The notes under the pieces were generated by a model. It was not told the DNA's origin. It ran no database searches and saw nothing but the letters and a program-made list of their open reading frames with translations. DNA of 63,291 bases, the filler included, from Bigelowiella natans CCMP2755 (lineage: Eukaryota > Protista > Cercozoa): assembly GCA_000320545.1 (NCBI GenBank). It is 5 parts of 5 records of this genome, joined end to end, with 100 filler letters (N's around TTAATTAATTAA, not from the genome) between each part and the next. Parts side by side here need not be neighbours in the genome. Positions count along the whole stretch, not along the records: positions 1 to 7,866 come from ADNK01002983.1; 4 more parts are not named here. One strand, written 5' to 3'. This document shows, piece after piece, positions 900 through 60,889 of the stretch (position 1 is the stretch's first letter; each line of letters starts with the position of its first letter). The position numbers were made by a program, and so were the translations under genes.

Positions 900-2100
900 G
901 ATTGAGCAGTTCGATTCATAATGCCATGCTGTGGCATGGTGCTTGCATGCGTTCGACAACTGTGGATCAAATATCAACACTGTGCGTTGGGATTGAAAGC
1001 GACACTGACACAGATGACAGTTTCTTGGTCCGATGTGGCTCATCAAATCCCTCATTGAACAATCACACATGTGCACATGACATGAATGCGCCTTTTGAGT
1101 TTTTGCGATTGCATCCATGCTCAAGGCGCTGCGCGAACTTTGCCCATTTCTGCATGTGACGATTAATTTGCGGTGGCGACTTGCTAGCTTGAGATGCTAG
1201 ACTTGCGCGCATGCGAGCACGACAAAGCGAGAGAGCAGGAGCTTGGCATCTTTGTCCATGCGACATGAACATCGTGTGCCGCATTGCCACTTGAATGCAG
1301 ACCAACAGCGCGTTTGTTGCGTACAGATGCTATCGTTGGCAACTGTCTGTGCACCATCTTGCAAAGTGTGATGTTTGTTGTCGATCACCGCCATGCAGCG
1401 TCACCGCAAGTTGCGAAAAGCGCTTCCTTCATCATCATTCACACATGCATGTGGCGTGCGTGCCATTGTGCACCATTCGCGCACGCGCATGCACCAGCTG
1501 CATGACAATGATGACACACAACATCGGAGTGTCATTGGTCAGGACAACGATTCATGCGGGTCACATGCGCAAATAAATCGATTTGCAACTCGAGAAAGAC
1601 ATCGTTGCTCAAAATGCATGCAAATGTCATTGAAAAAACAGGACTGCTGAACTGTGCATGCCACGTCACTGATAGTTGTGGTCTGCATGTGTGCATTGGC
1701 AATGCATAAACATCCGCACGTCCCACATGACATGCAGTGATGGACACCATGATGAAATGCACGCTGTGTGCATGCACGTGTCACGTTGCTTTGTCCATCG
1801 CACGCGTGCATGATGCATGCAATGCACACGTGACATGTGCTTTTTCCACGTGGTGCCTAGTTGCAAGGCACGTGTGCATGCATCGTAGGACATCGACAAT
1901 GTGCAAATGACAATGAAAGGTGCTGTTTTTTTGTTCTTCAATGTCTTCACCCTGGCGCCTCTGTGATGACTAGATGACAATTTTTCAAAGAGGGCAAGCC
2001 GAAGCGAAAGAATGGCATGCGAGACTGTGCGGAGCAAAATGATTGTGGCAAAAGAGTTGCAGACAAAAACGATTTCAGTGAAGCCTACATCAACCAAGCG
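900..2100. other. TpA-depleted island with CTAG footprints
   Basis: Few TA dinucleotides and abundant catg/tgca. Footprints cttg-CTAG-cttg 1180-1191 and atga-CTAG-atga 1966-1977. Boundaries approximate. Confidence 0.8.
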
Positions 2101-3052
2101 CACTGCCTGAAGAAAAAGATGAAAAAGAAAGAGAAGCAGAGGAAGGAAAATAATCCAGGCTGCATCGTAGACACTCCCCGGATTTTGAGCAATCATCCCG
2201 ACGATCTTGCCCACCAACCGCAAACAGCTTGCCATCACCAATAGCCACCCCTAAACTCCTCCTCTCAGTCCGCATTTCAGACAGTTCCTTCCAACCTTCC
2301 TCCATGTTCTCCAAATCCAGATGCTCCCCAGATTTTGAGCAATCATGCCGCAGATCATACCCACCAACCACAAATAGCTTGCCATCACCAATAGCCATCC
2401 CCAAACTCCTCCTCTCAGTCCGCATCTCAGGCAGTTCCTTCCAACCCTCCTCCATGTTCTCTAAATCCAGATACTCCCCAGATTTTAAGCAACCATCCTG
2501 ACGATTATACCCACCAACCGCAAACAGCTTGCTATCACCAATAGCCACCCCCAAATACGTCCTCTTAGTCCGCATGTCAGGCAGTTCCTTCCAACCCGCC
2601 TCCATGTTCTCCAAATCCAGATACTCCCCAGATTTTTTGGAAAAATGCCGACTGTCATACCCACCAAGCGCAAACAGCTTGTTATCACCAATAGCCACCC
2701 CCAACCCCCCCCTCCCAGTCCACAAGTCAGGCAGTTCCTTCCAACCCGCCTTCATGTTCTCCAAATCCAGATACTCCCCAGATTTTGAGCAATCATCCCG
2801 ACGATCATACCCACCAACCGCAAACAGCTTGCCATCACCAATGGCCACCCCTAACCCCCCCCTCTCAGTCCGCATTTCAGGCAGTTCCTTCCAACCCGCC
2901 TCCATGTTCTCCAAATTCAGATACTCCCCAGATTTTTTGGAATGATGCCAACGATCACACCCACCAACCGCAAACAGCTTGCCATCACCGATAGCCACCC
3001 CCAAATACGTCCTTTTAGTCCGCATGTCAGGCAGTTTCTTCCACTCCGACAT
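2090..3052 (-). CDS. Kelch-repeat (beta-propeller) protein, six ~50-aa repeats
   Basis: Repeats W-K-E-L-P-x-M-R-T-x-R...G-V-A-I-G-D-G-K-L-F-A-V-G-G-Y-D...S-G-E-Y-L-D-L carry the kelch GG, Y and W signature. DNA period is 150 bp. Confidence 0.9.
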   Translation of the reverse strand: MSEWKKLPDMRTKRTYLGVAIGDGKLFAVGGCDRWHHSKKSGEYLNLENMEAGWKELPEMRTERGGLGVAIGDGKLFAVGGYDRRDDCSKSGEYLDLENMKAGWKELPDLWTGRGGLGVAIGDNKLFALGGYDSRHFSKKSGEYLDLENMEAGWKELPDMRTKRTYLGVAIGDSKLFAVGGYNRQDGCLKSGEYLDLENMEEGWKELPEMRTERRSLGMAIGDGKLFVVGGYDLRHDCSKSGEHLDLENMEEGWKELSEMRTERRSLGVAIGDGKLFAVGGQDRRDDCSKSGECLRCSLDYFPSSASLSFSSFSSGSALG

Positions 3053-4141
3053 TTAGTCTCCGTTCTGCCTCTGCTCCAGCACATCAATTGTTGTATATCC
3101 ATTGATTTTTCCACTATGAGGTCGTCCCAGTCTCTGAACGATGTAGGCACTCGCGAGTATCTCAGCTTTGTGAATTCCATTTTTCAACCTGCCCAGAAAT
3201 CGCTTCTTTTTCATTTCATCTGCGATCAGTTTGTATTTTTCTTTGTCGCTGGTGTGTGCATCATCATCATATTTCTTCCTCAGTTGTGCGATATCTCTTT
3301 CGGTTGAGTCATGCAAAGTTTGAAGTGAATTTGATAACTGAATCTCAGCTTGGGCGATGGCAGTCAGCTTTGTTTCATGACCATGCTTTCGCAACGTGCG
3401 AACGCTCTCTCCTGTGAAAGATGTCCCATCAATTGTTGCGCTTTTGTTTCCGAATTGGGACATAAACGAGATTTTCCCATCGTTGAATTTGTATCTTAGC
3501 ACAAATTTTATATCTGTCTGCTTGAAGGCATATTGCTCTGTTGTTAGTGTGTAAGCGATTTTGCAATTCTTTTTGCCGTTCAAAATGTTCTGAGCATTTC
3601 TCATCCTGCCACAAATGCTCCGCCCTTCCAACACGTCGGTGATTTCCGTGATTTTCTTGCGATGTTTGTCCAAAACGTCTCGCTGGAGCATGATTTCACG
3701 GATCAAATCTCGCTCTTCGCATTCACTGTCCAGTCCTTCACCACCCCCTTCATCCCGGTCTCCACCGACAATTGCATCTTCCAATGTCTTCAATCTAGCT
3801 TCACATACGGATGCATCTTCCTTTCGCTTCTTCAACTCTAGTTCTAAATTTCCTCTCCAGTGTTTCACATAATTCCTCAATTGCTTCAACTTTGTCCTTA
3901 GGTTCTTAAATTCGTTGCTGGTTTGATTGCCAGAAACGATGAAAGTCGCAGCTTGTCCGCAGTTTGTCGGTTCTTTGACGTCACTGTTGCTCGTTGCTAC
4001 TAGTACCGACGCCTTCTTTCGCCTCTTCCTTTGTCTGCCATCTTGAACACTGACTGTCCAGTCCTTTGTTCCCAAGAACTGTGACACAAAAATAGTCCTT
4101 CCTGCAGGAGCTGCTTCTTTGCATGATTGCATTTGTTGCAT
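3053..4141 (-). CDS. N-terminal charged/coiled-coil region, in frame with the kelch ORF but separated by one TAA (possible pseudogene)
   Basis: 362-aa ORF whose stop (3053-3055) directly precedes the ATG of the kelch ORF in the same frame. Confidence 0.6.
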   Translation of the reverse strand: MQQMQSCKEAAPAGRTIFVSQFLGTKDWTVSVQDGRQRKRRKKASVLVATSNSDVKEPTNCGQAATFIVSGNQTSNEFKNLRTKLKQLRNYVKHWRGNLELELKKRKEDASVCEARLKTLEDAIVGGDRDEGGGEGLDSECEERDLIREIMLQRDVLDKHRKKITEITDVLEGRSICGRMRNAQNILNGKKNCKIAYTLTTEQYAFKQTDIKFVLRYKFNDGKISFMSQFGNKSATIDGTSFTGESVRTLRKHGHETKLTAIAQAEIQLSNSLQTLHDSTERDIAQLRKKYDDDAHTSDKEKYKLIADEMKKKRFLGRLKNGIHKAEILASAYIVQRLGRPHSGKINGYTTIDVLEQRQNGD

Positions 4142-4148
4142 GTAGCGT

Positions 4149-4477
4149 GGCCGGTCGAATGAGTTTTTGCTTTATGGTTTCATTTGAACGTTCGATAGCG
4201 TGCGTCAAGTGAGCTCTTATGTCCGAAGAGAAGATGACCGACCATGGATGACGAAAATCCAAAACGACTTAACAATTCAAAATAAGATCCGCCAACTTTC
4301 TTGTCGTAGAACAAAAAAGGCGATATCACCAAGCACCGGCAGGCGGGCCGGTCGAATGAGTTTTCAAGTGAGCTCTTTCTTATGTCCGAAGAGGAGATGA
4401 CCGACCATGGATGACGAAAATCCAAAACGACTTGACAAGATCTGCCAACTTTCTTGTCGTAGAACAAAAAAGGCGAT
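4149..4477. repeat. Local imperfect direct duplication (~130-180 bp units)
   Basis: ggccggtcgaatgagtttt...tatgtccgaagag.agatgaccgaccatggatgacgaaaatccaaaacgactt...gccaactttcttgtcgtagaacaaaaaaggcgata occurs at ~4149-4326 and ~4346-4477. Confidence 0.85.
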
Positions 4478-5276
4478 AACACTAAAGGAACATTGCGATT
4501 TTATAGCTGCGACAAGGAGGAATCCAGACGTGTTGCCCGAGGTTCCATACGAGTATCTCCTGCTCATGGGGGATGCGCTGAGGACTCCTTCTCCACTGAC
4601 TGCCCAACAGAGAGATGGCCACAACATGCTCCTCCGCCTTTTCTCCGTCCTTCCTGTCAATCTCGCGAGCTGGCCAGCGCTGCAAAACTTTGAAGCCCGC
4701 AAAAGCGGCGCTGCTTCTCGCTGGCGGCCATTATAGGCAGGAGGGGGCGGGGAGGGGGCGGGGGGGCCACTCCGATTATGGATGCTCGAAATTCACCAAA
4801 ATCTGCTCCCTACCCAGGAAGACGTCCGTGTCATGCTGCTGTTCTCTCCGATCTGAGTCTTCAGGTACGATTTCTGTTAGCTAGAAGAGGGGGGGAGGAG
4901 TATGAGCAGCAGTAGCAATGTTGTCAGCTGTAAGCAGCACTCACACCATTCTTCTTCGTATCCTCTCACTCCACAATGATAAGACCATATGTTCTTGTTT
5001 CTGTCGCATATGCAATGCTGTGGGGATTTAGCTCATTGAATCATAAGGAGCATACCGGACTTTACCCGCGTACCTCCCCCCCCCCCAACCCCCCCGAACA
5101 CACGATGCTAATACTAAGACTATCAACTACTTGTTAGGGCTGACTCTTGTGGCTGCGACCAACGTGTTCTTATTCGAGCCTTCGTTCAATTTCGCAGTGG
5201 AGCAACAAGCCATAAACAGGGTACTCCTAGTATGAGAAGTATCTTGGGGCTGGCTTTTGCTGAACTGTTTGTGTAT

Positions 5277-5315
<39 letters not shown>

Positions 5316-6599
5316 AAGATTCATCGGATTGGCCAAACGAAGCCTTGTACGGTGAGACAGCGACAACGTGTACAGCACGCCAACCGACAATAGCAGCAAC
5401 AATGCAGTAGTAGTACCTCATTCGTTTCGGTTTTTTATTTACATTCCCTTTCCCACCCCGCCATCATTTGTGAGATGATGACTTGCATATACAGTAACAC
5501 GAACATAGTCTCTGTTCCCATTGTCTAGTGCTTAGTAATGACGTAGAACTCTTATTCCCTCCCCCCCCCCCCCCTTTGGCCGGCCCCTCGCAATGCTACT
5601 GATGCTGATGCTGATGGTGTTGTGCTGAGCTTATAGTTTCTGCCTGTCCGGATGGAATACCACTCAGGTGTACCGCTTTGTAACGACGAACACAATCGAG
5701 GAAAAGATTGTCCAGGTAGTCAACTTGCCAGCTGCCCTGCGGCGATTCCATAGTCGTATAGACAGGGTTGGGTGCTTGATATGGCAGTCATGTTCGGTGT
5801 GATTTCTTTATGAGGTGTTATGAAGATATATTTCCTACGCTTTGTTTGGCCCCTCCCCCCCTTGTACTCCTCCTCTCCCCCTCCCTCACTATCTACCAAA
5901 ACTATGACGATACGATAGATAACTACCGAGGGCATGCAACAGCAAAAGGCTAGCAGTAGGAGTAAGAAGAGAAAGAGGACTTCTGGTAACGGGGAGGGGG
6001 GAGACGATGATAATAATGGTAATACCGAGGCACATACGAATCACTAGCAGTGACGTGTATGGAATAGTGGTAGTTTCATTGACTGTTGTTTCCATTCCTT
6101 CCCCGCTCCTCCTCCAGTGCGATTGTGAATATTATAGCAATGAGATCCACCACTACTAAAGACGAGTGGTGTTCTAGCCATTTGGTCATCCACCACAATC
6201 TGTGATTTCATCGCTAGCAACGTCGATGTCGTACACCGAACACACATCCTGCTACTCATAGGTTTGGGGCTTGGAAAGGGAGCGAGAGGAGAGGACGACC
6301 AAAACGGCGATGGGGTTGCAATTCAGAAGGCAAAGGAGGAGATCAAGGCAAAACCGCCCTTTGTTCATCATGACCATCACATGCACCCGAGCGCCCAACC
6401 TCGTTGTTGCTGATGCATGCAATGTGCAAACATGCTCATACTCGTCATCCGTGTGATTGTGAGGAGGATGCTTGACGCGAAATGTGATGACAGGTGAACC
6501 AGCTCCTGTATCTTCTGGGCATCGTTAAGAACGCAGATGAATTATGTGATGGAACTGCAAGACAAATCTAACGAGCCCCGTGACGTAGATTTATAGATT

Positions 6600-7650
6600 G
6601 CCCATTGGAGATGTTGATTGAGCAGTTCGATTCATAATGCCATGTTAGCTAGCATGGTGCTTGCATGTGTTCGACAACTGTGGATCAAATGTCAACACTG
6701 TGCGTTGGGATTGAAAGCGACACTGACACAGATGATGGTTTGTTGGTCCGATGTGGCTCATCAAATCCCTCATTGAACAATCACACATGTGCATGGCATG
6801 AATGCACCTTGCAAGTTTTCGCGATTGCATCTATGCTCAAAGCGCTGCGCGAACTTTGCCCATTTCGGCATGTGATTGATTTGCGGTGGCGACTTGAGAT
6901 GTTGTGAGCTTGCACGCATGCGAGCATGACAAAGCGGGAGAGCGGGCTAGCGGGAGCTTGGCATCTTTGTCCATGCGACATGAACATCGCATGCCGCATT
7001 GCCACCTGAGTGCAGATCACGACCAACTACAGGGCGTTGTTGCGTACAGATGCTATCGTTGGCAACTGTCTGTGCACCATCTTGCAAAGTGTTCCATCAT
7101 TGTTGTCGATCGTCGCCGCCGTCGTCTCCGCATGCAAGTTGCGGAAAGCGCTTCCTTCGTCATCATTCGTGTATGCATGTGGCGTGCGTGCCATTCGCGC
7201 ACGCGCACTGTTGCACCTGACAATGATGACACACAACGTTGGCGTGTCATTGGTCAGGACAACAATTCAAACGGGTCACATGCGCAAATGAATCGATTTG
7301 CAACGTTCATCGAGAAAGACAACATTGGTCCAATTGCATGGAAATTTCATCGAAAAAACAGGACTGCTAAACTGTGGCACGTCACTAACAGGTACAGTCC
7401 GCCTGGCAATGATGCACAGACATCCGCACATCCCACATGACATGCATTGATGGACATGCGATGATGGAGACCGTGATGCAATGCGAAACTGTGCGGAGCA
7501 AAATGATTGTAGCAAAAGAGTTTCAGACAAAAACGATCTCAGTGAAGCCTCCATCAACTGAGCGCACTGCCCAAAGAAGAAGCCGAAAAATGATGAGAAG
7601 CAGAGGAAGGAAAATGATCCATGCAACGCAGACACTCCCCAGATTTTGAG
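6600..7650. other. TpA-depleted island (paralogue of 900-2100)
   Basis: Same composition bias. Footprint cggg-CTAG-cggg 6943-6954 is absent from copy 1. Confidence 0.75.
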
Positions 7651-7866
7651 CAATCATTCCAACGATCTTGGCCACCAACCGCAAATAGCTTGCCATCACC
7701 AATGGCCACCCCAAAACTCCTCCTCTCAGTTCGCATGTCAGGCAGTTCCTTCCAACCCGCCTCCATGTTCTCCAAATCCAGATACTCCCCAGATTTTAAG
7801 CAACCATGTGGACGATTATACCCACCAACCGCAAACAGCTTGCCATCACCAATAGCCACCCCAAAA
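7554..7866 (-). CDS. 3' end of the second kelch-repeat gene copy (truncated by gap)
   Basis: AIGDGKLFAVGGYNRPHGCLKSGEYLDLENMEAGWKELPDMRTERR... Confidence 0.8.
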
Positions 7867-9829: not shown

Positions 9830-10700
9830 GATGACATGATGCATGCCACAGTTGAATGCCTTATTTTGACGCGGACTTCGACTTCAGAGCGTCTAACAAT
9901 GAAATATCGACCTTCATGCTTGTGATAAGTCCAATTGTACTCATTCACAGCATGCGTGTTGCTCTCTCCACCAAGACGTGTGCCATGCATTTGCGCGCTG
10001 CTGCTGGAGTTCCTGATGTCGATTGTGTGTTCATGCAGCATGCAAATGCGTGTGTGCAATCTAGATGTGTGCACATGTGTGCCGCTAGCTTCGCTTGCAA
10101 AAAATGATTTTCATGCCAGTCCCAGCACACATGGCCAGCACTGCGATGCACTGCAGAGCTGGAGTGCACCACAGCGTGCGTGCGCGCACAAAACGCGAAC
10201 AGCACAACTCAACAAGCGCAGCACCAAGCTAGACAGCGTGCGTGCATGTGTGTGCACGTGCCCTCCCATGGCACTCATTGCAGTGCTGAAGTGCACTGCT
10301 AGACTGATCGCGATCGTTCTGCACATGCACGTTTTGACACACAATGAAAACACACACACACGTGCACAAACATCACTGCACTCCTGCATGTTCTTGATTT
10401 CGCTCCCCAGAGCGAAGAAGCGGAATTGGACAATTCTCAACTGCGACTGTGTCTGCGTTCCCGAACATCTTGGACATTTTTGCTGCCGCAAACGTGATTC
10501 ACGAGCGAGCAGCCCCTGGCCAGGCCTTTGTCGGCCGATGAATTAATTCCAGGGGAGGAAAAAAAAAAGGCGGCCACAGAGCGTGAGATTGATGATGGAT
10601 TTGATGGCTGATGTGCCAACATCAGAAACGACGTTCACAGTGCGAAGGGCCAAATAACAATGGAAATCTCCCGCCCTTTTTGATGGTTTTGATGCAATTT
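9830..10700. other. TpA-depleted island
   Basis: TG/CA-rich with rare TA. Footprint actg-CTAG-actg 10295-10306. Confidence 0.8.
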
Positions 10701-24619: not shown

Positions 24620-26000
24620 GTAGTTGTCGCATTGAGAAAATCGCATGCCTTTCAAACACGAGATGACACTGAGCCGTTGTCACCACTTCTCTTCGTGGTG
24701 TTGGACTACCTAAGAAACTAGAAAACCGCGTGAAGACATGTTGTCGCATACACCAAAACGTCTGAGATTTCTTCGCATTTCTGTGGTTCTGACGCGTGTG
24801 ATTTTTGATCAATGCTTCTTCTCATGTTTCATGTTTCATGTTTCTGTGTGCGTTCGTTCGCTCTGATGATGAGGGCGCACAGATTTTCGCAGCTAGCTGG
24901 AACGCGATGCATGCTTGTGCCAGCGTGGTGATCAACTCTGCTAGTCTGGATCGCAAGCGCGAATTGGACGTGCGTCGCAACCTGGCAATCGATCATCATC
25001 ATGGATCGAAGTGCGGACTCGAGCCGTGAAAACGTGAACCCGCCAACCGTTCCAGCGTTTTGCACGTGCAGCGTGCGTCCTGGCGTTCTCCAGTTCTCTG
25101 CGCGCGCACACAATTTTCATTTTTCACACACACGTTTTTCGTGTGGGATGGCATGCAGACATGCCACCCTGACATTCATGCACATCGTGCACACGTCTAG
25201 ACGTGACATCACGTGACATGAGATCGACATCATTGCCATGCACAGACGCATGAGCATGACTTGCACAGCTAGACAGATGCAAGTGCGAAGTCAAACGAAG
25301 TCTGGAATTGGTTGAGTTGAGTCTCACTTGTGCGAAAATGACTCGTGCCATTTGCACGTGCGAAAATGACTCGTGCCATTTGCACCAGTGCGACAATCAC
25401 ACTGGGTTAGTCCAGTGGTGGGAGCTGTCAGCGAGAGAGTTGGCCAGCTGGGGGGATTTCCGTCAAACTGCTGCAACCAGAACCCAAGTCTTCATCGACG
25501 TTCTTCCCGCTTGCGAGTTGGAGAGATGCAAACGATTTCGTTTCCAAAGAGAAAACAGAGAGGATCGTGATGACGACGATGATGATGCTGACAGATGACA
25601 ACGGGATCTGCAATGATGTGATCAAGTTTGCCTTTTCTCGTCTCTAGCAATTTCTTGATTGTCACAATTGAATACTCTCTCACAGCACAGCAAATGCAGT
25701 CATTCATCATCTCGATTGTCTCCTTATTGTTGGTCTGTGATGCAAGACCGTCATCAATGCCAACTTCACCAAACTCATTCTCAATGATTGCAAATCAACA
25801 CACACACACACGTTGCAAAGTGCACGTGTCATGGTGTTGACAAACCCGCAAACCCTAGTTGCACTCATCAACGAAACCTCTGCTTGGACTGCCACATGCT
25901 AGCATGCAATGCACAACACTTGATGAGCTAGCGCGTGACGCTGAGTGCATGCAGCTATTTATCAAATTGCCGCCTAATGACACATGCTGCATGTGCATGC
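24620..26000. other. TpA-depleted island with footprints
   Basis: 24781-25920 has only three TA outside CTAG by eye. Footprints at 24937, 25193, 25265 and 25895. A short tandem duplication (gtgcgaaaatgactcgtgccatttgcac) lies at ~25330-25385. Confidence 0.85.
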
Positions 26001-36003: not shown

Positions 36004-36954
36004 CACAGCTAGACAGCTCCGTCAAACCCGGTGACAATTGGGTTGTGAACAGTGCAGCGCTTTGAAGCAGCAGGCAGTTGCAGTTGGTCAAGGAAAAGTC
36101 ATCAGAGCTAGCTTGTCCGATGGCCAAACCTAGCAAACCTCAAAAAATGACCGAAATGTTGACCAAAATGTCCATTTTCAAGGCTCACACAGTTCCGTCA
36201 AACCTGCAACGAATCGCCAGAACATGCATTTGGAAGCTTTTGCGCGCGACCAAGCGCGTTCTAGCGTTGTGTGATGTGATGGACATTGGATTTGCTCGCA
36301 TTTCTTTGAAATTTTTCGTGCACATCACACTTGGTCAAACACACGCTAGCACGCGCAAAAGCACTCAAAATGTGGCAGAGAACAAACGCGCAGCGTGCAT
36401 CCTTTGCACAATGGGTGTGATTTTTAAGACTTCAGCACTTTTCGCGCTCACTGAGGCCTTGAAAATGGACATTTGGGTCAATTTTTCGGTCATTTTTTGA
36501 GGTTTGGCCATCGGACAAGCTAGCAAGTTCTGATGACTTTTCTCTGACCAACCGGGACTGCCTGCTGCTTCAAAGCGCGTCGCAAAGCACTGCACCACTG
36601 TTCACAACCCCGTCAATGCCGGGTTTGACGGAGCTGTGTCAGTGAGCGCGCAAAGCTAGAAAGTGTGAAAATTCACACCCGTTGTGCAGAGGATGCACGC
36701 TGCGCGTTTGTTCTCTGCCACATGCATTTTGAATGCTTTGCAATGGACACAGCAATGCAACGTGTTGTGGATTGCATGTCCATCATCTTTTGCGCGTGTG
36801 TTTGACCAATCTTTGTGTGCACGAAAAATTTCAAAGGAATGCGAGCAAATCCAATGTCCATTGCATCACATGACGCGCTTGCTAGCTTGGTCGCGCGCAA
36901 AAGCTTCATCCAAATGCACATTCTGAAAATTGTCACAGGTTTGACGGAGCTGTG
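36004..36954 (+). mobile_element. MITE-like non-autonomous DNA element (outer copy)
   Basis: Terminal inverted repeats CACAG(+8-bp footprint)CTCCGTCAAACC ... GGTTTGACGGAGCTGTG. Interrupted by an inverted copy of itself. Confidence 0.75.
36188..36638 (-). mobile_element. MITE-like element (inner copy, 451 bp), inverted, 3-bp target duplication TCA
   Basis: TIRs CACAGTTCCGTCAAACC / GGTTTGACGGAGCTGTG, flanked by tca at 36185-36187 and 36639-36641. Its reverse complement matches the joined halves of the outer copy. Confidence 0.8.
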
Positions 36955-37236: not shown

Positions 37237-40200
37237 CTAGCCAACAAAGGATTGGTCAGAGGAATTCGAACCGTTGCCTTTTTCCTCGAGCGTTTTCAGC
37301 TCCCCACCTTCGCTCCCTTTTGCCAGTAGCGCAAGAGACGAATGGCGGGTTCCACGCGTCCTCACACGCCCTTTCTCTTTCACTAAAGCATGGGGAGTTC
37401 GTGGCCAGCGTGAAGAGCTCATCGCTGATTCTCCACCGGTTTGGTGCGTACGCCTCGTTGGATTTACAGAGGTACTAGTACTTCCAGGATGTGGAAGGTT
37501 AAGCGTAGTAACCCTCCCTTCGCTGTAATCCCGCGCTGAGGCCAATTCACTATCCTCTCCGAGCCCTAGACTATTCTCGCTGACGTAGGCTGCAGAGTCC
37601 AGCAGCATATCTCTCCGACCATTCTTATTTCCCATGTCTCCGGTTGAGGAAGAAGCTGCTGGGAAGGAAGAACCGAGCGCTGGAAGTCGAGGAACGGAGT
37701 AATTTAGCTCCGCCACCGAGCGTGGGTTGGTGTTTACCACACGCGCAAAGTGGCCTCGGGAGGCAGCCGATCCTCCTGCTCTACCGCCGTTTCCACCCCG
37801 AAGGCTGTTCATCTTGGTCACCTGGTCGAGAATGAACTCTTTCACGTTTTCGTTGTCGTTGAAAGCGATTTCAAACGAGTTGTGCAGCGCGTGCGCCATC
37901 TTCAGCGCCTTCTCGCAGTCCTTTCCGTTATAAACCACTGTATTATGGACTCGGACAGCGCGCCATCCGACCTTTATTCCGAGTTTCTTACCAGCTGGGA
38001 ATACGTGCTTCACCCTCCCGCCTATATCCAGCTCGCAAGTCTCCTCGTCCGAAGGCACAACCATAACGATTCTTTCATCACGCCCCAGGCCAGCATGTTC
38101 TACCTTGCTGTTGGAGGACCCCGCGCATACACACGCGCAACACGGCATAATCAGAAGGAACTCGATCATCGAGATAGTTCCCATCCGGAAGAAGAAGTCT
38201 TGGAAGAAACTATACAGACTGGCGGTCACAGCCATCGTTCCAGTGTTTTTGGTGCTCCACGACAAAACTACGAGGAGAAAGCAGCAACCGAGGCCTGCCA
38301 TCACCGCAACCATCATCGTCAGAACGTCGCACAACGACCAGTTGTAGACTCTCATTTTTAGAATGGATTCCTGCCGGACGTACAACCCGAACACTGTATC
38401 CTCACGGTCTGGGTCCTTCAGACTGGGCGCGAAAAGGTTGATCGTCCGGCCCGATCGCGTCCTCCGCACCCCCCCGACAGTCGCATGGGAGCGGAGAAGC
38501 GTTCTCTTCTGGCCAGGGGCTGATGAAGAGCCAGTGGCTTTGGTGTCTCCCTCGAAGCGATGGGGTGCAATCTTGCTGTCCGCAAGAGATGGATGCGATG
38601 CTCGTGAAGAATTCGACTCTGAAGACTCGGAGGGAATACGCGAGTGTTTACTTCCAGCGCCACCACCCCCTTTTCCTCGGTCTCTTGCCGCCCACGCACT
38701 TCCACCGCTACGGCTACTACCGCGTCCCGTTTTGTCTTCTTTGGACGCTCCCATCTTCTCGGCCTTTGCATCGCCCGCACGTTGCCCGAACACACCCCCG
38801 AGAGTCGCTGCGAACATCCTTGAATTCCCACGTTGGAGCGCTCGTCCTAGCTGTGCGAATCTACTTTTTGGCTCTCCATTCTCATCCTCATCGTCGTAGT
38901 TATCGTAGTCATCATCATCATCATCGTCGTCGTCGTCGTCAGCGTTGTGAGCCTCATCACCCTCACCCCCTCCCGCATCGTCATCGTTTAACTGCACCTC
39001 CAAGCCCTCGGGAGCGTCAGTAGAGCCGCCTATCAGACCCAAGAAGAATAGCAAACACGGCATATAGCTCGCCCACACAGGCTGCTTGAACTTGACGGCG
39101 AAGTGCGAAGGTGGTCTGCGGCTTAGAATCATCCCAATTGTGAAAGGGATGGGGAACGAAATGACAAACGCAACAATGGCGACTGCTGCCGGTCCCTGAA
39201 CGAACAAAAGGTGCTGCTCCGTTTCGAGGAGCAAGGCACACACAACAGACGCATTGAGAAGGAGAGTGAAGAGGACGACGAGTCTCTTCTGGGAATTCAC
39301 GAAGTCCCCTGGATGGCGATAAATGAGCGAAATCCACGGATGCTTGCGGCGAAAACTCCACTTCGTTGTCTTCAAGCAAGACCCGTAGCCGCGCTCGTCT
39401 CTAGCATAGATTGCTCGAACCTTCGGTTTGTTTGCAAGAATTAGGCGGGCAATTTTGATGAGGAACACCGATAATAGTGATCTCTACATTGGTCTTTTTT
39501 ATAGGTGGCTACTATCGGTGAGGTAGTTGACGTGGCAGCCATTTTGGCAGCACACGGTGGCGACAAAGGCATGCATGCGCGTGAGGCTTATCGTTCTCCA
39601 TGCGCTGTTTTCAACGAATATTGCAATGAATAATTTTGGTTGGTAGTACCTGATTGTACTGGCGCCAGAAATCGCTCTCCACTCGTTTGTTTGTAATTTG
39701 CTTATCAAAATACCACGCCATGGGGTAGCAAACCAGGAAAATCCCTCCCATGACGAGCACGAACGCCATCATCAAGTTTTTGAATCTAACAAAAAGAGAG
39801 GATTTGGGTACAAGTTAAACGACTGGCTAATACCCGAAACAGAAAATGTCATCGCCTTCTCAAGAAATATCAATGCAACTGGTGTTTCGTTTGTGCAAAA
39901 TTTCACATCAAATCTGAAGGATTCCACATCACTGCCCTCCTTCTTTCTTCTTTTTTGCATGTAGTAAGCACTTACGGGTTGAATGCATCGAAGGTGATAT
40001 CCTCCTCCTCGACGGTCTGAATCTGCACTTTGAATCGCATGCGCGACGAAAACGGCGTAAGGTGGCTACTCGCGCACTCGTAGCTTGCTGGTTGCGTGGC
40101 TGTTGCGTTGACCGCGGACGCAATAACCGTGGCGACGCCGTAAGTAGACCATCCCTCCTCCGCCTCATTCCAAAACACGCACTCGGGGACCCAACTTCCG

Positions 40201-43200
40201 GCTGTCTCAATGCCCGCTGCCCTTGCTGGCAGGGCATCACCTGAAGGAATACCGATACGAATCTTATCGGACGCTGCGCCCCCGCTGCTGCTGAAGTCAA
40301 TGCTCACAGCCTTGCTCGAAGACTTGATCTCGACGATGGAGAGGCCGGCGAAGCGCAAAGTCGCGTTACGCTCAGACTCCGTGGGATATAGAGCATTTCC
40401 TGATATGGACACTAATACAGCTTCGTACGTTGCATTGCCTGTCAGCATTGCAAGAGATGGAAATTTGACGGAGACTTCATCCCCATCGCCATTACCACCA
40501 GAGGCCTTTAGACTCGCTCCTTCGACGCTGGCAGCGGTGAGCTTCTGACCAGAGAGAGATATTGACATCTCTGGCTGGTTGGCCCGCTTCCTCGGAGCGA
40601 TGGCTAGCAGCTTCGGCCGCTCTCCGACTACAGAAGACTCTAATTGCATGGAGACGAGGCTGGAGAACAACGACCCGATGCGCCCTGAAAGTCTCGCGTC
40701 CGCAGAGTTGGAGCTCTCCGTTGCCGCGCCAGCTGCAATAGAACCCCCGTTTGCCAGAGTCGATTGCATAATGTTTCCAAGAGTTCTTGCCGAGGCGGCC
40801 ACTGCAGAATCGACATCCGCCTCCTCATCATCTTCATCGCTGTCACCGCTCTCGCTGCTCTGCTCGGATGAGGGCGTATTTACGAGAACTGTTTCCAATA
40901 TGCTCAGGGCCCTATCCTGCATGTCCGAATCCAGCTCTCCTGGGCGCGAGAAGTCGGTTATTCCTTCCAGCAGCGCCGTGGTGGTCCTCAGAGGAAGCAT
41001 AGGCGACGACGATGATGATGAAGTGGACGCATTGACGATGTTCTTCATAGAATCCAGGAGACTCTCACGTTGCTGGCGAGCCTCGCTCGCGTTGATCTGC
41101 TTCGACCCGGCATCGGAGTTTAAGTACGACGTCACACCAGCAAACAGCGAGGTCACGACTTGCGAGTCTCCCGCCTCGATCTTGCTTTTTATTTCCTGCA
41201 GCTTCTTGCCAACGTTCAAGTTTACAGGCTGGCTCACAGACACGTTAAAGTCAAAGGACGCCGCAGCGTTAAGAGCGTCGACCACCACCGCTCTGATAAG
41301 AGTCATCGTGCCGTTGCCGTTCTGTGCTCCTCCACTATTACTTGCACTGCTGTTACTTCCAGACAGCAATGCCGATTCGGATGTTCCCGGGAGCTGAGTA
41401 TCGAAGAAATCGTAGCCACGTGGCTCACACAAGTCAAAAAACACAGCGGGTGATGACGATGACGATGAAGATACTATACGCCGGAACACGTAGCGGAGAG
41501 GGAGGTCACTCTCGGGGTCTTCCCACCTCGAGCAAGCAAGGCGAAATACTGTTTCCAGTGCCGTTCCTAGCCAGGTGCACAAAAAATGGCAATTATAAAC
41601 AAATCGTGCAAGGCAGCGATGACATCATAATCGTATAGCCCGTCGCCATGCCATCATCATCATCATCATCATCATCACCACCACCATAATCATCATTATC
41701 ATCAAGACGTATTGTGATGACCAGTGTTTTGCGCAACAATACAAAAGGGTGTCTCGCAATTAATTCGCACACCTTTCTCTGGAGAAGACCAACACGACCC
41801 GAGCGCAGGCGCCGAGTTTGTGGCGATTACAATCGACGCGTATCCTTCGGCTTTCGGCCCCGCACCGGTGGTGGGGGTAGAAGTCGCAGTGAGAACAAAT
41901 GTGTACCGACCCCCAGGAGGCAAGGCATGCGGAGCTAGGACGAGTGTTGGTGTGGTGAGCGACGAAGAGAGGATCGCCCCCTGTTCTAATGATGATAGAT
42001 TCAGGCTCGGGCTATGCCACATAAGTGTCGTTGTAGTGGCTGTGTCGCTCGGAGGCGTCGTTACTGTAGCTGAAAACGAGAGCTTACTCCCCGGGTTGAC
42101 CCGCTGCGTAGATGCCAACCCAGCGGCACCTTGAATAGACACGTCTGGAATTGGGAGATCGGTGGTTTCTATTCTCTGTCTGGCCGCGTCAGTGCGGAGG
42201 ATTCCAGTAGCGTTGCTCCCCACAACGACTATGATCGAGTAGTTGCGTTTCGCCTCGAAGAATTGACGGGTTGCGAGCTCGATCTCCTTCGTATCCCCGA
42301 GGACCTGCGAGCCCGCAGTCTGAGAAGCGTTGAACGTGGCGAGGACGAGGTCTTTCGAATCTCCAGGCACCAAGTACCACTTGTAGGTCAGGGGGGCCGA
42401 AGGAAAGGCCACGTCCTTACTTCCGGCAGCGCTTAATTTCAATTTCGGCGAAGAATTCCTCGCGACTATGCCGGGGTTAGAAGAAGTTGGAACATGGACC
42501 CTCTTCCATCCTCCCCCCCCCCCAACCGTGGCGCGCACAGGCTCGTCCTCGACGGAGACGGTTACCCATATAGTCTTGAATCCTGCGACCTGCCCGGACG
42601 CCCTGTGGGTACTGTACACGTACAATCTAAAGCGATAAACCGTCGCCCCAGCTTTCATGGACAGAGAGAACGCAGGGAGCGAGAGGTAGAGCGCCCGCGG
42701 GGAGGGAATGAGCACAGAATCGGGGCCGCTAACTTGCGTCCAGACCTGAAGGGAAGGCGACAAAGGGTGAGGAATTGGGGTGACAATGAAGAGGTCGGAC
42801 GAATTACCCCAACCACTACATCACTTTCTAGGTTACACCGATCTCTTCTCTGCCAACCCTTCTCGCTCACCAATAACCCAACTAGGCGCCAGCTAACGCT
42901 ATACACTCAGAAAGAGTCAACCGACCTGGGAGATGGAGAAAAAGTCGCTCATATCCGTGCTGCCGCATTTGGCCAGAGAAACTTGGACTGGGATACTCAG
43001 GGGGCGGCTCCTCTTCGCCGTTACGAATTCGGAGCCGGGAAGCGAAACCACCGGCTCGATTTTGGTAGTTCGCAGCACCTTTTGCGAGAATACCGCGCGC
43101 GCGCCCAGCCAGCTGGTGACACTCACATTGAAGAAGTAGCGGTATCCGTTGACCATGCTCTCAACGCTGATCGCTAGGGCCGGGGAATTAGCTTCGGAGG

Positions 43201-49799: not shown

Positions 49800-50660
49800 A
49801 CAGCCATTGCAGCATGGCAGTGTGCGGTACGACACCCGTTACGATCGTTTGCAGAGCGCATAGATCGTTTGCATGATGACAGCCCGCTACGCAGCCATCA
49901 TGTGCGAATATGCCATGCACATATCGCATTTAAGGCATTGCTATTAGATTACCTCTTTGTGACGACTACATTTATCATTGTGATACGTTTGCAACGAACC
50001 GAGTGACCCGTCTAGCCGTACGTGCGCGGCGTATGCAATCATGGAGACGGCCAAAGTAGGGGCGACGCTAGCAAATGTAAGACGGATGCATAATGAATCA
50101 ATCAAATTTGTTCAATGGTCATCCTCATGCTACGTAGTTGTCTAGCTGTGCAATGCCAGCGGCTACGTACAGCGCTAATTTTGAATCTGTTGGCTTCCGC
50201 TGCTGATGTGTTTCATGCGCAAATGTGTAATGCCTAGCAGCAAGTGCAGGTGCTTGTGCATGTACGTAACACAACCAGACACGCGCATGCAACTGCAACC
50301 ATAGCAATGAGCATTAGCGTAGCACGTACTAGCGCATGATAATAGACACAGTAATAGACACATATGACCATTGTGTAAACATCTAATTATTTCATTACAT
50401 CCGTCGTCTCATGCATGCTAGCATGTGTACACAGCTAGATAGAGGTCTGCATCATCGTCCTGATGACATGGATGCTTTTACTAGTTTAATTGCATGAAGC
50501 ACACGGTGGCTAACACAAACCGACACAACATGTATGAGCGCTGTAGCCGCTGCTCTGTGTAGCTACACTACATTAGCTAGCTATAGGATGACCATTGAAA
50601 ATATTTAATTATTTCATTACATCCGTCTCATATATACACGCTGCATGTGCATCATGACAC
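49800..50660. other. Partially TpA-depleted island with footprints
   Basis: ccgt-CTAG-ccgt 50008-50019, catg-CTAG-catg 50414-50425, ttta-CTAG-ttta 50477-50488, plus single-mismatch cases. Many TA still present. Confidence 0.6.
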
Positions 50661-55070: not shown

Positions 55071-55199
55071 CCAGATATTTTCCGATGATATTTTGGTTTA
55101 TTTCACTTCAATCAATGAGGATGTGTGACTCTTTCTCAAGTTACGAAACCCAGTAACCGCCAGGAGGAATATATGACGACCCTCCCCTGCCAGCATAAC

Positions 55200-56693
55200 A
55201 TGCCGGCGCTCACTTTCGTTCTCGCGGCGATGTGTGTGTCGGTATGCGCTGCTGCTGCAAGCCCACGAGTCTTGCCGGGAGTTGACCTGAGCGAGAACGC
55301 TGGGCCGCAATCCATCATGCTCGTGGTGAAGGGCGAGATGGGCCTCGACGAGATGGCGCCTTTGGACGATACTCTGCCACGCTCGCTCAAGCGAGAAGCC
55401 GTCTACAGCTTCCTTACGGACAGGGCGGAACGTGGGCAGAAGTGTGCACGCGCGGCCCTGCGCAAACGGAACGTCGAGTTCCAAGCGTTCTGGATAACCA
55501 ACGCGATCTCGGTACGAGAGGTGGCAGGCCCAGTGCTCCGAGACATCATCACAGAGTGCGGGTACGAAATCGAGGAGGTCAGACAAATGGGTTACCTCAA
55601 GCGCCGGATACCACCTCAAGATTCCATGCGGCCGCAGCCTGTTTCCTCAAAGCTCCAGTGGAACATCGAGAAGGTCGGGGCGGACAAGGCGTGGGCTGAT
55701 GGCCACGATGGGACTGGCGTCGTTGTGGCCACTCTAGATGGAGGCGTTCGGTACACCCACGATGCGCTTATCAACAACTACCGAGGGACGGTGGATGCTG
55801 ACAAGGGCAAGTTTGAACACGACTACAACTGGAAAGACTGGCCGTACAAGAACAAGGAGCCTCTCGACTCGGATGGCCACGGCACGAACGTGCAGGGGAT
55901 TCTGTCCGGGTCAAAGGAATCGGGGGTGGGGGTGGCGCCCGGCGCTAAGTGGATCTCAGGCAAGATCTTCAACTATGCAGGATACTCCTCCAACGAGTGG
56001 ACGCTGTCAGGCGTCCAGTGGGCCATGTGCCCCACTCCGCTGGCATCTCGGTATGAGCAGTCGGGGAACTGCTCTCTGGGTGCCGACGTCGTTTCTTGCA
56101 GCTGGGGAGAAGACGACGCCACCACCGGGTTTCTCAAAGACGCCATGGCAGCTTGGCTCAAGGCGGGTATGGTACCTGTCTTCGCGGTGGGAAACGCAGG
56201 CCCGCATTGCGGTACAGTCGTCAGCCCTGCAGATTATGCCGGTGTGCTCTCTGTGGGGGCCACCGATAAGCATGACGAAATGGTTGAATTCTCCTCTCGG
56301 GGGCCTGGTGCGAACGGCACTAAAGGCGCCCTTCCATACGACCCTTTAACACCCAATCTTGTTGCCCCCGGACTGATGATCCAAGGGCCATCTCATAAAA
56401 GCGACGACGGATACACTGGTTTTTCTGGCACGAGTCAGGCCGCACCACACGTAGCGGGAGCAGCAGCGTTGCTGCTCTCCGCTCATCCATCATGGAGCCC
56501 GCATCAGGTCGCGGAGGCCTTGTACGCTACAGCTGCCACTGCATCTCTTCCGGTTCCAGATTCGGGGTGGGATAAATGCGGAATGCCTGATGCTGCACTT
56601 GCGCCAAACGCCTCTGCTACGTTTCCCAACTTCATCGCAGGTTATGGCCGCCTTGATGCTGCTTCGGCGGCAGCATATTCCAAGGCTCATTAG
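55200..56693 (+). CDS. Secreted subtilisin-like serine peptidase (S8, bacillopeptidase F-like), intronless
   Basis: Signal-like MPALTFVLAAMCVSVCAAAASP. Catalytic Asp (VATLDGG), His (DGHGT), oxyanion Asn (AVGNAG) and Ser (SGTSQAAPHVAG). Confidence 0.92.
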   Translation: MPALTFVLAAMCVSVCAAAASPRVLPGVDLSENAGPQSIMLVVKGEMGLDEMAPLDDTLPRSLKREAVYSFLTDRAERGQKCARAALRKRNVEFQAFWITNAISVREVAGPVLRDIITECGYEIEEVRQMGYLKRRIPPQDSMRPQPVSSKLQWNIEKVGADKAWADGHDGTGVVVATLDGGVRYTHDALINNYRGTVDADKGKFEHDYNWKDWPYKNKEPLDSDGHGTNVQGILSGSKESGVGVAPGAKWISGKIFNYAGYSSNEWTLSGVQWAMCPTPLASRYEQSGNCSLGADVVSCSWGEDDATTGFLKDAMAAWLKAGMVPVFAVGNAGPHCGTVVSPADYAGVLSVGATDKHDEMVEFSSRGPGANGTKGALPYDPLTPNLVAPGLMIQGPSHKSDDGYTGFSGTSQAAPHVAGAAALLLSAHPSWSPHQVAEALYATAATASLPVPDSGWDKCGMPDAALAPNASATFPNFIAGYGRLDAASAAAYSKAH

Positions 56694-57460: not shown

Positions 57461-57854
57461 CCAATGCCATTAAAGCACGCTGTGCTGCGTGCTTTATTAT
57501 TCTCCACTTATAACGACTACCCAAAATAAAAAAGTGCAAGACTAAGCGCGCAGCCGCGGCTTGGCATGTATCGTATGGCTACATGTTAGGATGACATTTG
57601 AATACATTTCATTGTCTACATCAAATTCGTCGATCTCACATGTACTTACATATCGCGCGCACTGCTACACATGCGCGACATATCGACAATATCACATGGA
57701 TGTTTTTCTATGCATCATCGAAGCATAAGCACATAATAGCAGAAACAAACAGATACACAGATACACAACATAAGCTCTGTAGCCGCTGCTCTGTATTGCT
57801 TGCTACATCAGGATGACTGTTGAAAAGACTTAATCACATCATTCATTGCATCCG

Positions 57855-57899
<45 letters not shown>

Positions 57900-59611: not shown

Positions 59612-60161
59612 ACACAGCAGAAGAAAGAAACACCTCGATCCACTGCCCCCCGCCATTGGCAGAGCCTGCTGCCTCGCACTCGACTTTGAACATCTCCGTA
59701 TATCTATGGTCGTGATACATTAATATATAAATCAAATACAACATACATATATAGTTATGAAAGAAAGAAAGATGGTGACCAGCAACCCCCCCCCCCCACG
59801 CTCCCTAGCGTACGGACGTGTGTAAATTCGGCTGCATCCCGCTCGTCATAATGAAGTCGAACCACACACGCGCCTTCTCCAGCGCCCCTGCCTTTGCGCA
59901 TGCGGACAGCACGTTGTTCACGTCTCGCAATCGCGGGGGTATCTGTAACGAGGGAAAACAAAACAAAAAGGATGGAGGGGGGGGTTTAGAAAGAACGTCA
60001 GGGTGAGTACGACATCAGAGCAGCTGCCTGTAACACAACGGAACGTTCAATAAAGAGAAACGAGAAAACACAAGCGCGGCGACCGTCATTGTGCTTCAAA
60101 ACACTCGTCATTATCAATCACATCCTCCATCGAGGTCATATCAAATCGCCTCGCCTCATCA

Positions 60162-60211
<50 letters not shown>

Positions 60212-60889
60212 GTCATCGTCATCTTTACCCCCGCCGTCTGCATCCGCCCCACCCACATCTCGGCCTTCTCCACGAGTCCCTCCTGCGCGCACGCGTGGAT
60301 CACGGTTCCGTAGCTCACTTCCGACGGCTTGGCGCCGGCGGCGATCATCTGCCGCAGCCACTCCTCCGCCCTGCTCCCCCCCCCCCTCCTCCCCACCGAC
60401 GCCTTGATCAGCTTGTTGAAGTGCGACTCCCACGGCACCACGCCGCGGTCCATCATCCGCCTCACCCACGCGGCGAGCTGCCCATAATCGCGCTTTCGCG
60501 CGTACATAGCTGCCATGCTGTGGTAGGTCATCACGTGCGTCAGGCCCTTGCTGTCACGTTTGTCCAGCTGCGCGAAGGCGGCCTCGGCCTGTCGCGCCGC
60601 CCCCACGTTGGCGTAGATCTCGACGAGGAACCGCCGCATGCGGAGGGTGGGCGGCAAGCTGCAGGGGAGGCCGAAGAGCTCCTCCGCCATCGCCTTTAGC
60701 GGCGCGCGTTGTGCGGTCGGGCTATTGGCCACGGCCATGCTGATCTTGCTCAGGAGCTTGTCCATGTCGCTGATCCTCCGCTCGCTGCGACTCATCAAGC
60801 TAATAGAGAAAGGAAAGGGGGGGGGGAAGGGGGGGGGGGAGGGAATATTTTCCATTTATTATGCACGCTGCTAAAAAGAATGGCGGGCA

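Follow-up and report, generated by a model that had tools for sequence, protein, structure and literature searches.

Fungal repeat-induced point mutation (RIP) introduces dinucleotide-specific, strand-symmetric C-to-T transitions into repeated or foreign DNA, where TpA is gained. In Bigelowiella natans, mutations recorded in a pair of integrated viral regions were A/T to G/C changes on TpA in 230 of 231 cases; they arose in some of the lines only, at ~6e-7 per site and generation, and windows poor in TpA but rich in CpA+TpG were reported across the genome (Mettrop et al., bioRxiv 10.64898/2026.01.13.699255, 2026). The same data contained 21 indels, and adenine deamination at TpA was the chemistry proposed. 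In this study, we analysed a 63,291-nt stretch of B. natans DNA (hereafter the window; five parts with four assembly spacers, eukaryotic DNA), in which a segment made up of the 3' end of a kelch-repeat gene, its flank and a small gene on the opposite strand is present twice. By alignment, copy A spans 1-2405, with homology reaching the first base of the window, and copy B spans 5709-7866, where it ends at an assembly spacer. Each copy contains a TA-poor island, at 922-2079 in A (also TG/CA-rich; Rho TA 0.16, CA+TG 1.94) and at 6653-7779 in B (Rho TA 0.16, CA+TG 1.70). An initial annotation had proposed that TA loss and CTAG insertion both continued independently in the two copies after a recent duplication and are spatially confined. 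The best explanation, to which we give a probability of about 0.7, is that both copies, now ~7% diverged, have gone on losing TA to the mutator and acquiring CTAG scars, and that a 710-bp tract was later converted.

The mutator itself is already known, and this locus resembles the published hypermutation in species, in the change of TpA to TpG or CpA on both strands and in apparently episodic activity. Window 1001-2000 has Rho TA 0.17 and CA+TG 1.96, beyond the cut-offs of 0.43 and 1.52 in the preprint, as do five of 63 such windows in all. All five stand singly, so that the rule of at least three consecutive windows yields no cluster here; the islands are below the cluster size of the preprint. 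Unlike the de novo events in integrated viral regions, the changes described here lie in the host kelch gene and in a flank of 1 kb that separates host genes, and are dated by duplicates. RIP is similar in that its transitions are specific to a dinucleotide, affect both strands alike and concentrate in DNA that is repeated or foreign, but it is C-to-T with gain of TpA, whereas TpA is lost here: the eight TA-poor islands of the window, 7624 bp in total, have a pooled TA observed/expected ratio (O/E) of 0.18, with TG and CA at 1.75. Furthermore, homology alone is not the target rule in B. natans, as the duplicated segment 1-162 retains TA. The apparent sparing of CTAG and the coupled scars described below go beyond the main text of the preprint, which contains none of the terms 'CTAG', 'footprint', 'target site', 'trinucleotide' and 'gene conversion'.

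The direction of change cannot be read from a single TA/TG pair. All nine pairs of TA versus TG/CA listed in the initial annotation were recovered in the A/B alignment at the positions given there, and TA was kept seven times in A and seven times in B. Where an ancestral TA has been mutated on opposite strands in A and B, the copies read TG and CA, and such double swaps were used as the test. Seven were found, at 1018, 1096, 1275, 1442, 1679, 2095 and 2108 in A and at 6736, 6812, 6990, 7170, 7395, 7559 and 7572 in B, among 262 pyrimidine-purine sites in the island; independent hits predict 0.9-2.1. The other island sites were TA in both copies (4), TA versus TG or CA (13), CG in both (41), CG versus TG or CA (18), TG or CA unchanged (178) and TA versus CG (1). 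Outside the island (1-162 and two kelch pairs, 84 sites), these classes numbered 14, 5, 10, 2, 53 and 0, and double swaps were absent, as they were from 176 sites of the near-identical tract. A four-state fit put island TA loss at ~0.5 per copy and direction, ~25-fold the rate of an ordinary transition, with a profile interval of ~0.2-0.8 inside the island and <0.2 outside, and implied that ~60% of the remaining TA has been lost in each copy since the duplication. TA loss fixed at the ordinary rate was rejected (p = 0.001-0.004) even with CpG decay left free, and CpG decay as the only source of double swaps was thereby ruled out; CG retention did not differ inside and outside the island (p = 0.49). 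Hairpin micro-inversion was also rejected as a source, since inverted repeats next to the swaps never exceed 1 bp. Continued mutator activity in both copies is therefore probable, on evidence that the initial annotation had not used, although its 'mutator in action' holds only in the sense of since the duplication.

Other repeats gave the same picture. A foldback in another island (36013-36954), whose inverted ends begin CACAGCTCCGTCAAACC and which carries ten CTAG sites, served as an independent test case and had double swaps at four of its 97 sites (fit p = 0.0003-0.003). When isolated double swaps from A/B and the foldback were combined, they amounted to 8/359, against 2/905 for other double transitions (p = 0.001). 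When eight kelch units were polarised by majority, five of six TA columns had TG or CA in some unit, compared with seven of 63 other A columns (p = 4e-4), whereas TG-to-TA change was ordinary (7/25 vs 10/44); some of these TA losses are older than the A/B split. The kelch protein differs from its nearest paralog, P0129, at 14 of 333 residues, and seven of the 14, being Tyr/His/Cys and Ile/Thr/Met swaps, fit TA versus TG/CA codons, with the codon visible for A only. Four of the seven are apparent losses in A, one in P0129, and two are apparent gains in A. Three of nine Tyr residues differ, as compared to 11 of 324 other residues (p = 0.004). The differences from P0129 and the swaps in the kelch units indicate that the process also hit coding DNA beyond the island first described. 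As far as sequence comparison can tell, the TpA to TpG/CpA polarity of the preprint thus holds here by double swaps, by the kelch majority test and by paralog residues. The proposed spatial confinement stands in part: TA turnover is island-biased, with shared to one-sided TA at 4:13 in the island and 14:5 outside (p = 0.007), but it is graded, reaches the kelch coding sequence and does not account for the near-identity discussed below. Among five copies of a short repeat (50060-50640, 57560-57862), two retain TA where one reads TG and another CA; this region has footprints, yet only partial TA depletion.

The two private CTAG footprints named in the initial annotation are genuine 8-bp gains. 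At 1180-1191, A reads CTTG-CTAG-CTTG where B has a single CTTG, and at 6943-6954, B reads CGGG-CTAG-CGGG where A has CAGG. The empty sister sites, which had not been considered before, support CTAG insertion continuing in both copies after the duplication. A further footprint, ATGA-CTAG-ATGA, lies at 1966-1977 in a segment private to A. Exact 4-bp direct duplications, for which the chance expectation is 1 in 256, enclose 24 of 44 CTAGs in islands and eight of 118 elsewhere (32 of 162 sites overall). For seven footprints, the sister site is empty (A/B, two; foldback, five); in one of these the duplication is 5 bp long, and two show a single mismatch with the sister. The duplication follows the consensus (C/A)NN(G/T), its first base being C in 45, A in 14, T in 5 and G in 0 of 64. 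A private 8-bp insertion in B without CTAG (6585-6598, TAGATT-TA-TAGATT) was left out of these counts.

The mutator also appears to spare CTAG. In the eight islands, CTAG has an O/E of 1.48 and the 15 other NTAN words have 0.02-0.20; the island caller disregarded TA within CTAG, and plain 500-bp counts agree (at 10001-10500, four of four TA are in CTAG). The 20 island CTAGs without exact duplication match the ~16 expected from background, and duplications around CCAG/CTGG are no commoner than those around TTAG/CTAA (2 and 2). TA loss fades within ~500 bp of footprints: non-CTAG TA per kb is 19 within 100 bp, 47 at 400-600 bp and 50-52 farther away, a gradient that is descriptive, as footprints cluster. 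At 17702-17717, three consecutive CTAG are found, as expected if an element landed in an older footprint.

Along the duplicate, A and B are ~7% apart everywhere except in one tract. Segment 1-162, which is TA-normal (TA O/E 1.12) and was used as a neutral control, differs from B 5709-5870 at 11 of 162 columns (6.8%); the island segment 873-1746 differs at 74 of 830 (8.9%), segment 2030-2168 at 17 of 136, and the best-matched kelch units at 12 of 150 and 5 of 87 (together 17/237, 7.2%). Since 1-162 has diverged like the island (p = 0.44), the contrast drawn in the initial annotation between identity outside and divergence inside the island does not hold, and at a neutral divergence of ~7% the duplication is not very recent. 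Its near-identical stretch is nevertheless present: only four of 710 columns differ between 163-872 and B 5871-6580, compared with the adjoining 74 of 830 (p = 3e-16). This tract contains a small spliced gene on the plus strand (226-863, ~80 codons). Eight RNA reads join the exon end at 639 to 786 across a GC..AG intron (640-785), and the upstream GT..AG intron (311-553) is predicted from frame and splice sites; reads of run X21 cover 512-657 and 731-1095. The two introns differ at three of 388 bases, where 26 differences would be expected, so that protein selection is not the reason for the identity. Nor is the identity restricted to TA-normal DNA, because intron 640-785 has one TA in 146 bp. 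We consider it likely that 163-872 was homogenised late by gene conversion. The donor of intron 640-785 reads GCAAAA, and one may speculate that it was a GT-A site altered by the mutator; GC-AG introns could arise in this way. The small gene is represented in the RNA reads by A letters only (B 0/14 at 804 and 973), while reads near the kelch 3' end (2047-2087) carry mostly B letters (8/10 at 2047); the first mates of the two read sets map to opposite strands, as would be expected of two converging genes flanking the island.

Several observations weigh against the reading of continued TA loss, scarring and late conversion. Per column, transitions in 873-1746 are not commoner in TA context, with 11/174 columns for T against 17/246 for C, 6/139 for A and 5/131 for G (p = 0.70), and the initial annotation fails on the test that it had named. 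The 11 single TA/TG pairs there need no mutator, as ordinary TG-to-TA gain predicts 7.1-11.8 depending on the assumed bias, and such counts were accordingly rejected as a mutator test. Over 873-2405, the TA-context rate is higher (20/238, compared with 17/449 for the A and G contexts together, p = 0.013; vs all others, p = 0.057), a modest excess that comes partly from two non-orthologous kelch units paired in this span. Double swaps in the island versus those outside (7/262 vs 0/84) are not significant alone (p = 0.20), three of the seven sit in runs of differences, without which p = 0.07, and purine-pyrimidine sites show double transitions at 4/251, three of them overlapping the swaps in runs. 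At 1575, two other contigs carry G like B, so the TA of A may be a gain; the third copy also matches B at 1525 and 1528, which leaves this evidence neutral to contrary. Two ATA codons in the kelch gene of A resemble gains, TA-normal DNA holds six of the 32 footprints, and 22 stop-free island frames gave no viral or transposon domain in a Pfam search. No intact element with predicted ends and a 4-bp duplication was convincing among at least 10 candidates in the 63 kb. Finally, public contigs also merge 873-1075 (5% diverged) and so may conceal differences in the tract.

Part of this evidence would suit an alternative in which TA had already been purged from the island when the duplication took place and the mutator has since been inactive, the present differences being due to ordinary gain of TA from TG/CA, to decay at CpG and to multi-base changes in clusters. 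Such a history accounts for equal rates in T and C contexts, for 11 gains against 11.8 predicted from the published AT bias of 2.65, for the four TAs that survive in both copies, for the G at 1575 and for the loss of significance once the three swaps in runs are removed. It predicts, however, 2.3-2.8 double swaps and 27-29 CG differences where seven and 18 are seen, leaves the excess of isolated swaps unexplained, and is at odds with the footprints that both copies gained after the split; we therefore regard it as unlikely.

Assembly collapse of the tract, or alleles placed in tandem as A and B, seems very unlikely. The end of copy B at a spacer and the merging of stretches up to 5% diverged in public contigs would be compatible with it. 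In all three DNA runs, however, contigs specific to A and to B are alike in depth, and the depth of the tract is approximately their sum, about twice either (run X14: 65.9 and 72.3 vs 145.2), the 6.8% diverged stretch (32-192) splits in two in public contigs while the tract stays one double-depth contig, the three tract contigs carry only known B letters, and A and B lie within one gap-free stretch. Contig depth thus supports the tract, though without proof base by base. Least probable of all is a very recent duplication with all divergence due to island-confined processes: the abrupt edge of the tract and the island-biased TA turnover would fit, yet the divergence of TA-normal 1-162 and of the kelch units refutes it unless 1-162 has its own odd history, 64 of 91 substituted island columns are not TA swaps (27 are), and the identical tract contains a TA-poor intron.

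For continued TA loss with scarring and late conversion, we propose the following course of events. The kelch-gene 3' flank would have been duplicated from an ancestor holding TA at perhaps ~7-12% of pyrimidine-purine sites, as compared with a background of 22% (0.217) and 4% (0.04) now. Each copy would then have gone on losing TA via the TpA mutator of the species, in a strand-symmetric A-to-G process giving TG by the change on one strand and CA by that on the other, and presumably sparing CTAG while removing ~60% of what remained. TpA loss was likely episodic, before and after the duplication, because a constant 1000-fold rate would leave no TA, and the fit averages ~25-fold. The 8-bp CTAG insertions gained by each copy were likely left by a putative cut-and-paste element, the scar consisting of the 4-bp target duplication and terminal bases of the element, whose CT(A)...(T)AG ends would be joined after excision. 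The small-gene tract would have been converted last.

An invariant core enclosed by target duplications and missing from the sister copy is the mark of a cut-and-paste footprint. Tc1/mariner and Stowaway elements likewise leave a short target duplication enclosing a few terminal bases upon excision (PMC4561436), but the target here is a variable 4-mer, (C/A)NN(G/T), rather than TA, and the core is always CTAG. According to PMC10741241, Sola and Ginger make 4-bp duplications, with Ginger ends being TG...CA, and Helitrons end in CTAG without target duplication; CTAG between duplications, as found here, does not fit that Helitron definition. Literature searches found no description of an NNNN-CTAG-NNNN footprint, most subscription papers being outside their scope. 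A possible, still tentative reading is that the islands are scars of transposon visits, in which a putative element lands, attracts the TpA mutator to ~500 bp of host flank and excises, leaving a spared NNNN-CTAG-NNNN. If so, the introns of the host, the flanks of its genes and its paralogs would be rewritten as visits recur, and this would be a transposon-triggered DNA editing defence that spreads, with each event recorded in the DNA. The locus suggests that the mutator acted on ordinary host DNA over a long time. The apparent sparing of CTAG narrows the sequence rule of the enzyme, and the dense, precise excision scars that accompany the TA loss suggest that the mutator has a specific trigger. 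With no need for cultures, double swaps between duplicates could also be used to date the process and to detect it in related algae.

The kelch-repeat gene of copy A (2090-4141, minus strand) consists of an N-terminal domain (3053-4141) and six 150-bp kelch units (2169-3043); the kelch end of copy B (7630-7866, minus strand) holds the last 1.6 units, of which the second is closest to the third unit of A. The open reading frame 3053-4141 is identical to an EukProt protein in database comparison, four of its eight protein matches carry Joint Genome Institute (JGI) Bigna1 model names, and its 90% cluster mate is EP00466_Bigelowiella_natans_P012861. Frame shifts occur near 3050-3110, with a stop at 3053-3055, where the named paralogs read through unbroken. 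A further paralog, P0131, is placed by its model name on scaffold 146, home of the hypermutable virophage region of the preprint. In JGI metagenome scans, a 20-base island pattern had no matches, and none of 185 candidates for the kelch protein was confirmed. Copy B lacks 270 bp of A (1747-2016), the junction 1746-2017 being found in all three DNA runs, and A-specific contigs from these runs agree with the window at the matched pieces. Island pieces 1514-1720 and 1900-2046 recur elsewhere in the genome with different, TA-rich flanks (loose contig ends at 1514 and 2046); the island is partly composed of dispersed repeats. A coding origin of the islands was rejected, as the 22 stop-free frames had no match at the Pfam cut-off, except for a CobW nucleotide-binding domain remnant in a different TA-poor island with six footprints (25495-25794, minus strand, E = 4.9e-11). 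CGG/CCG is also depleted in the pooled islands (O/E 0.37 vs background 0.80), and CC/GG is at 0.59. Other genes in the window encode a REJ/GPS domain protein (39972-42763), an intronless subtilase (55125-56693) and a PPR protein (60136-60855).

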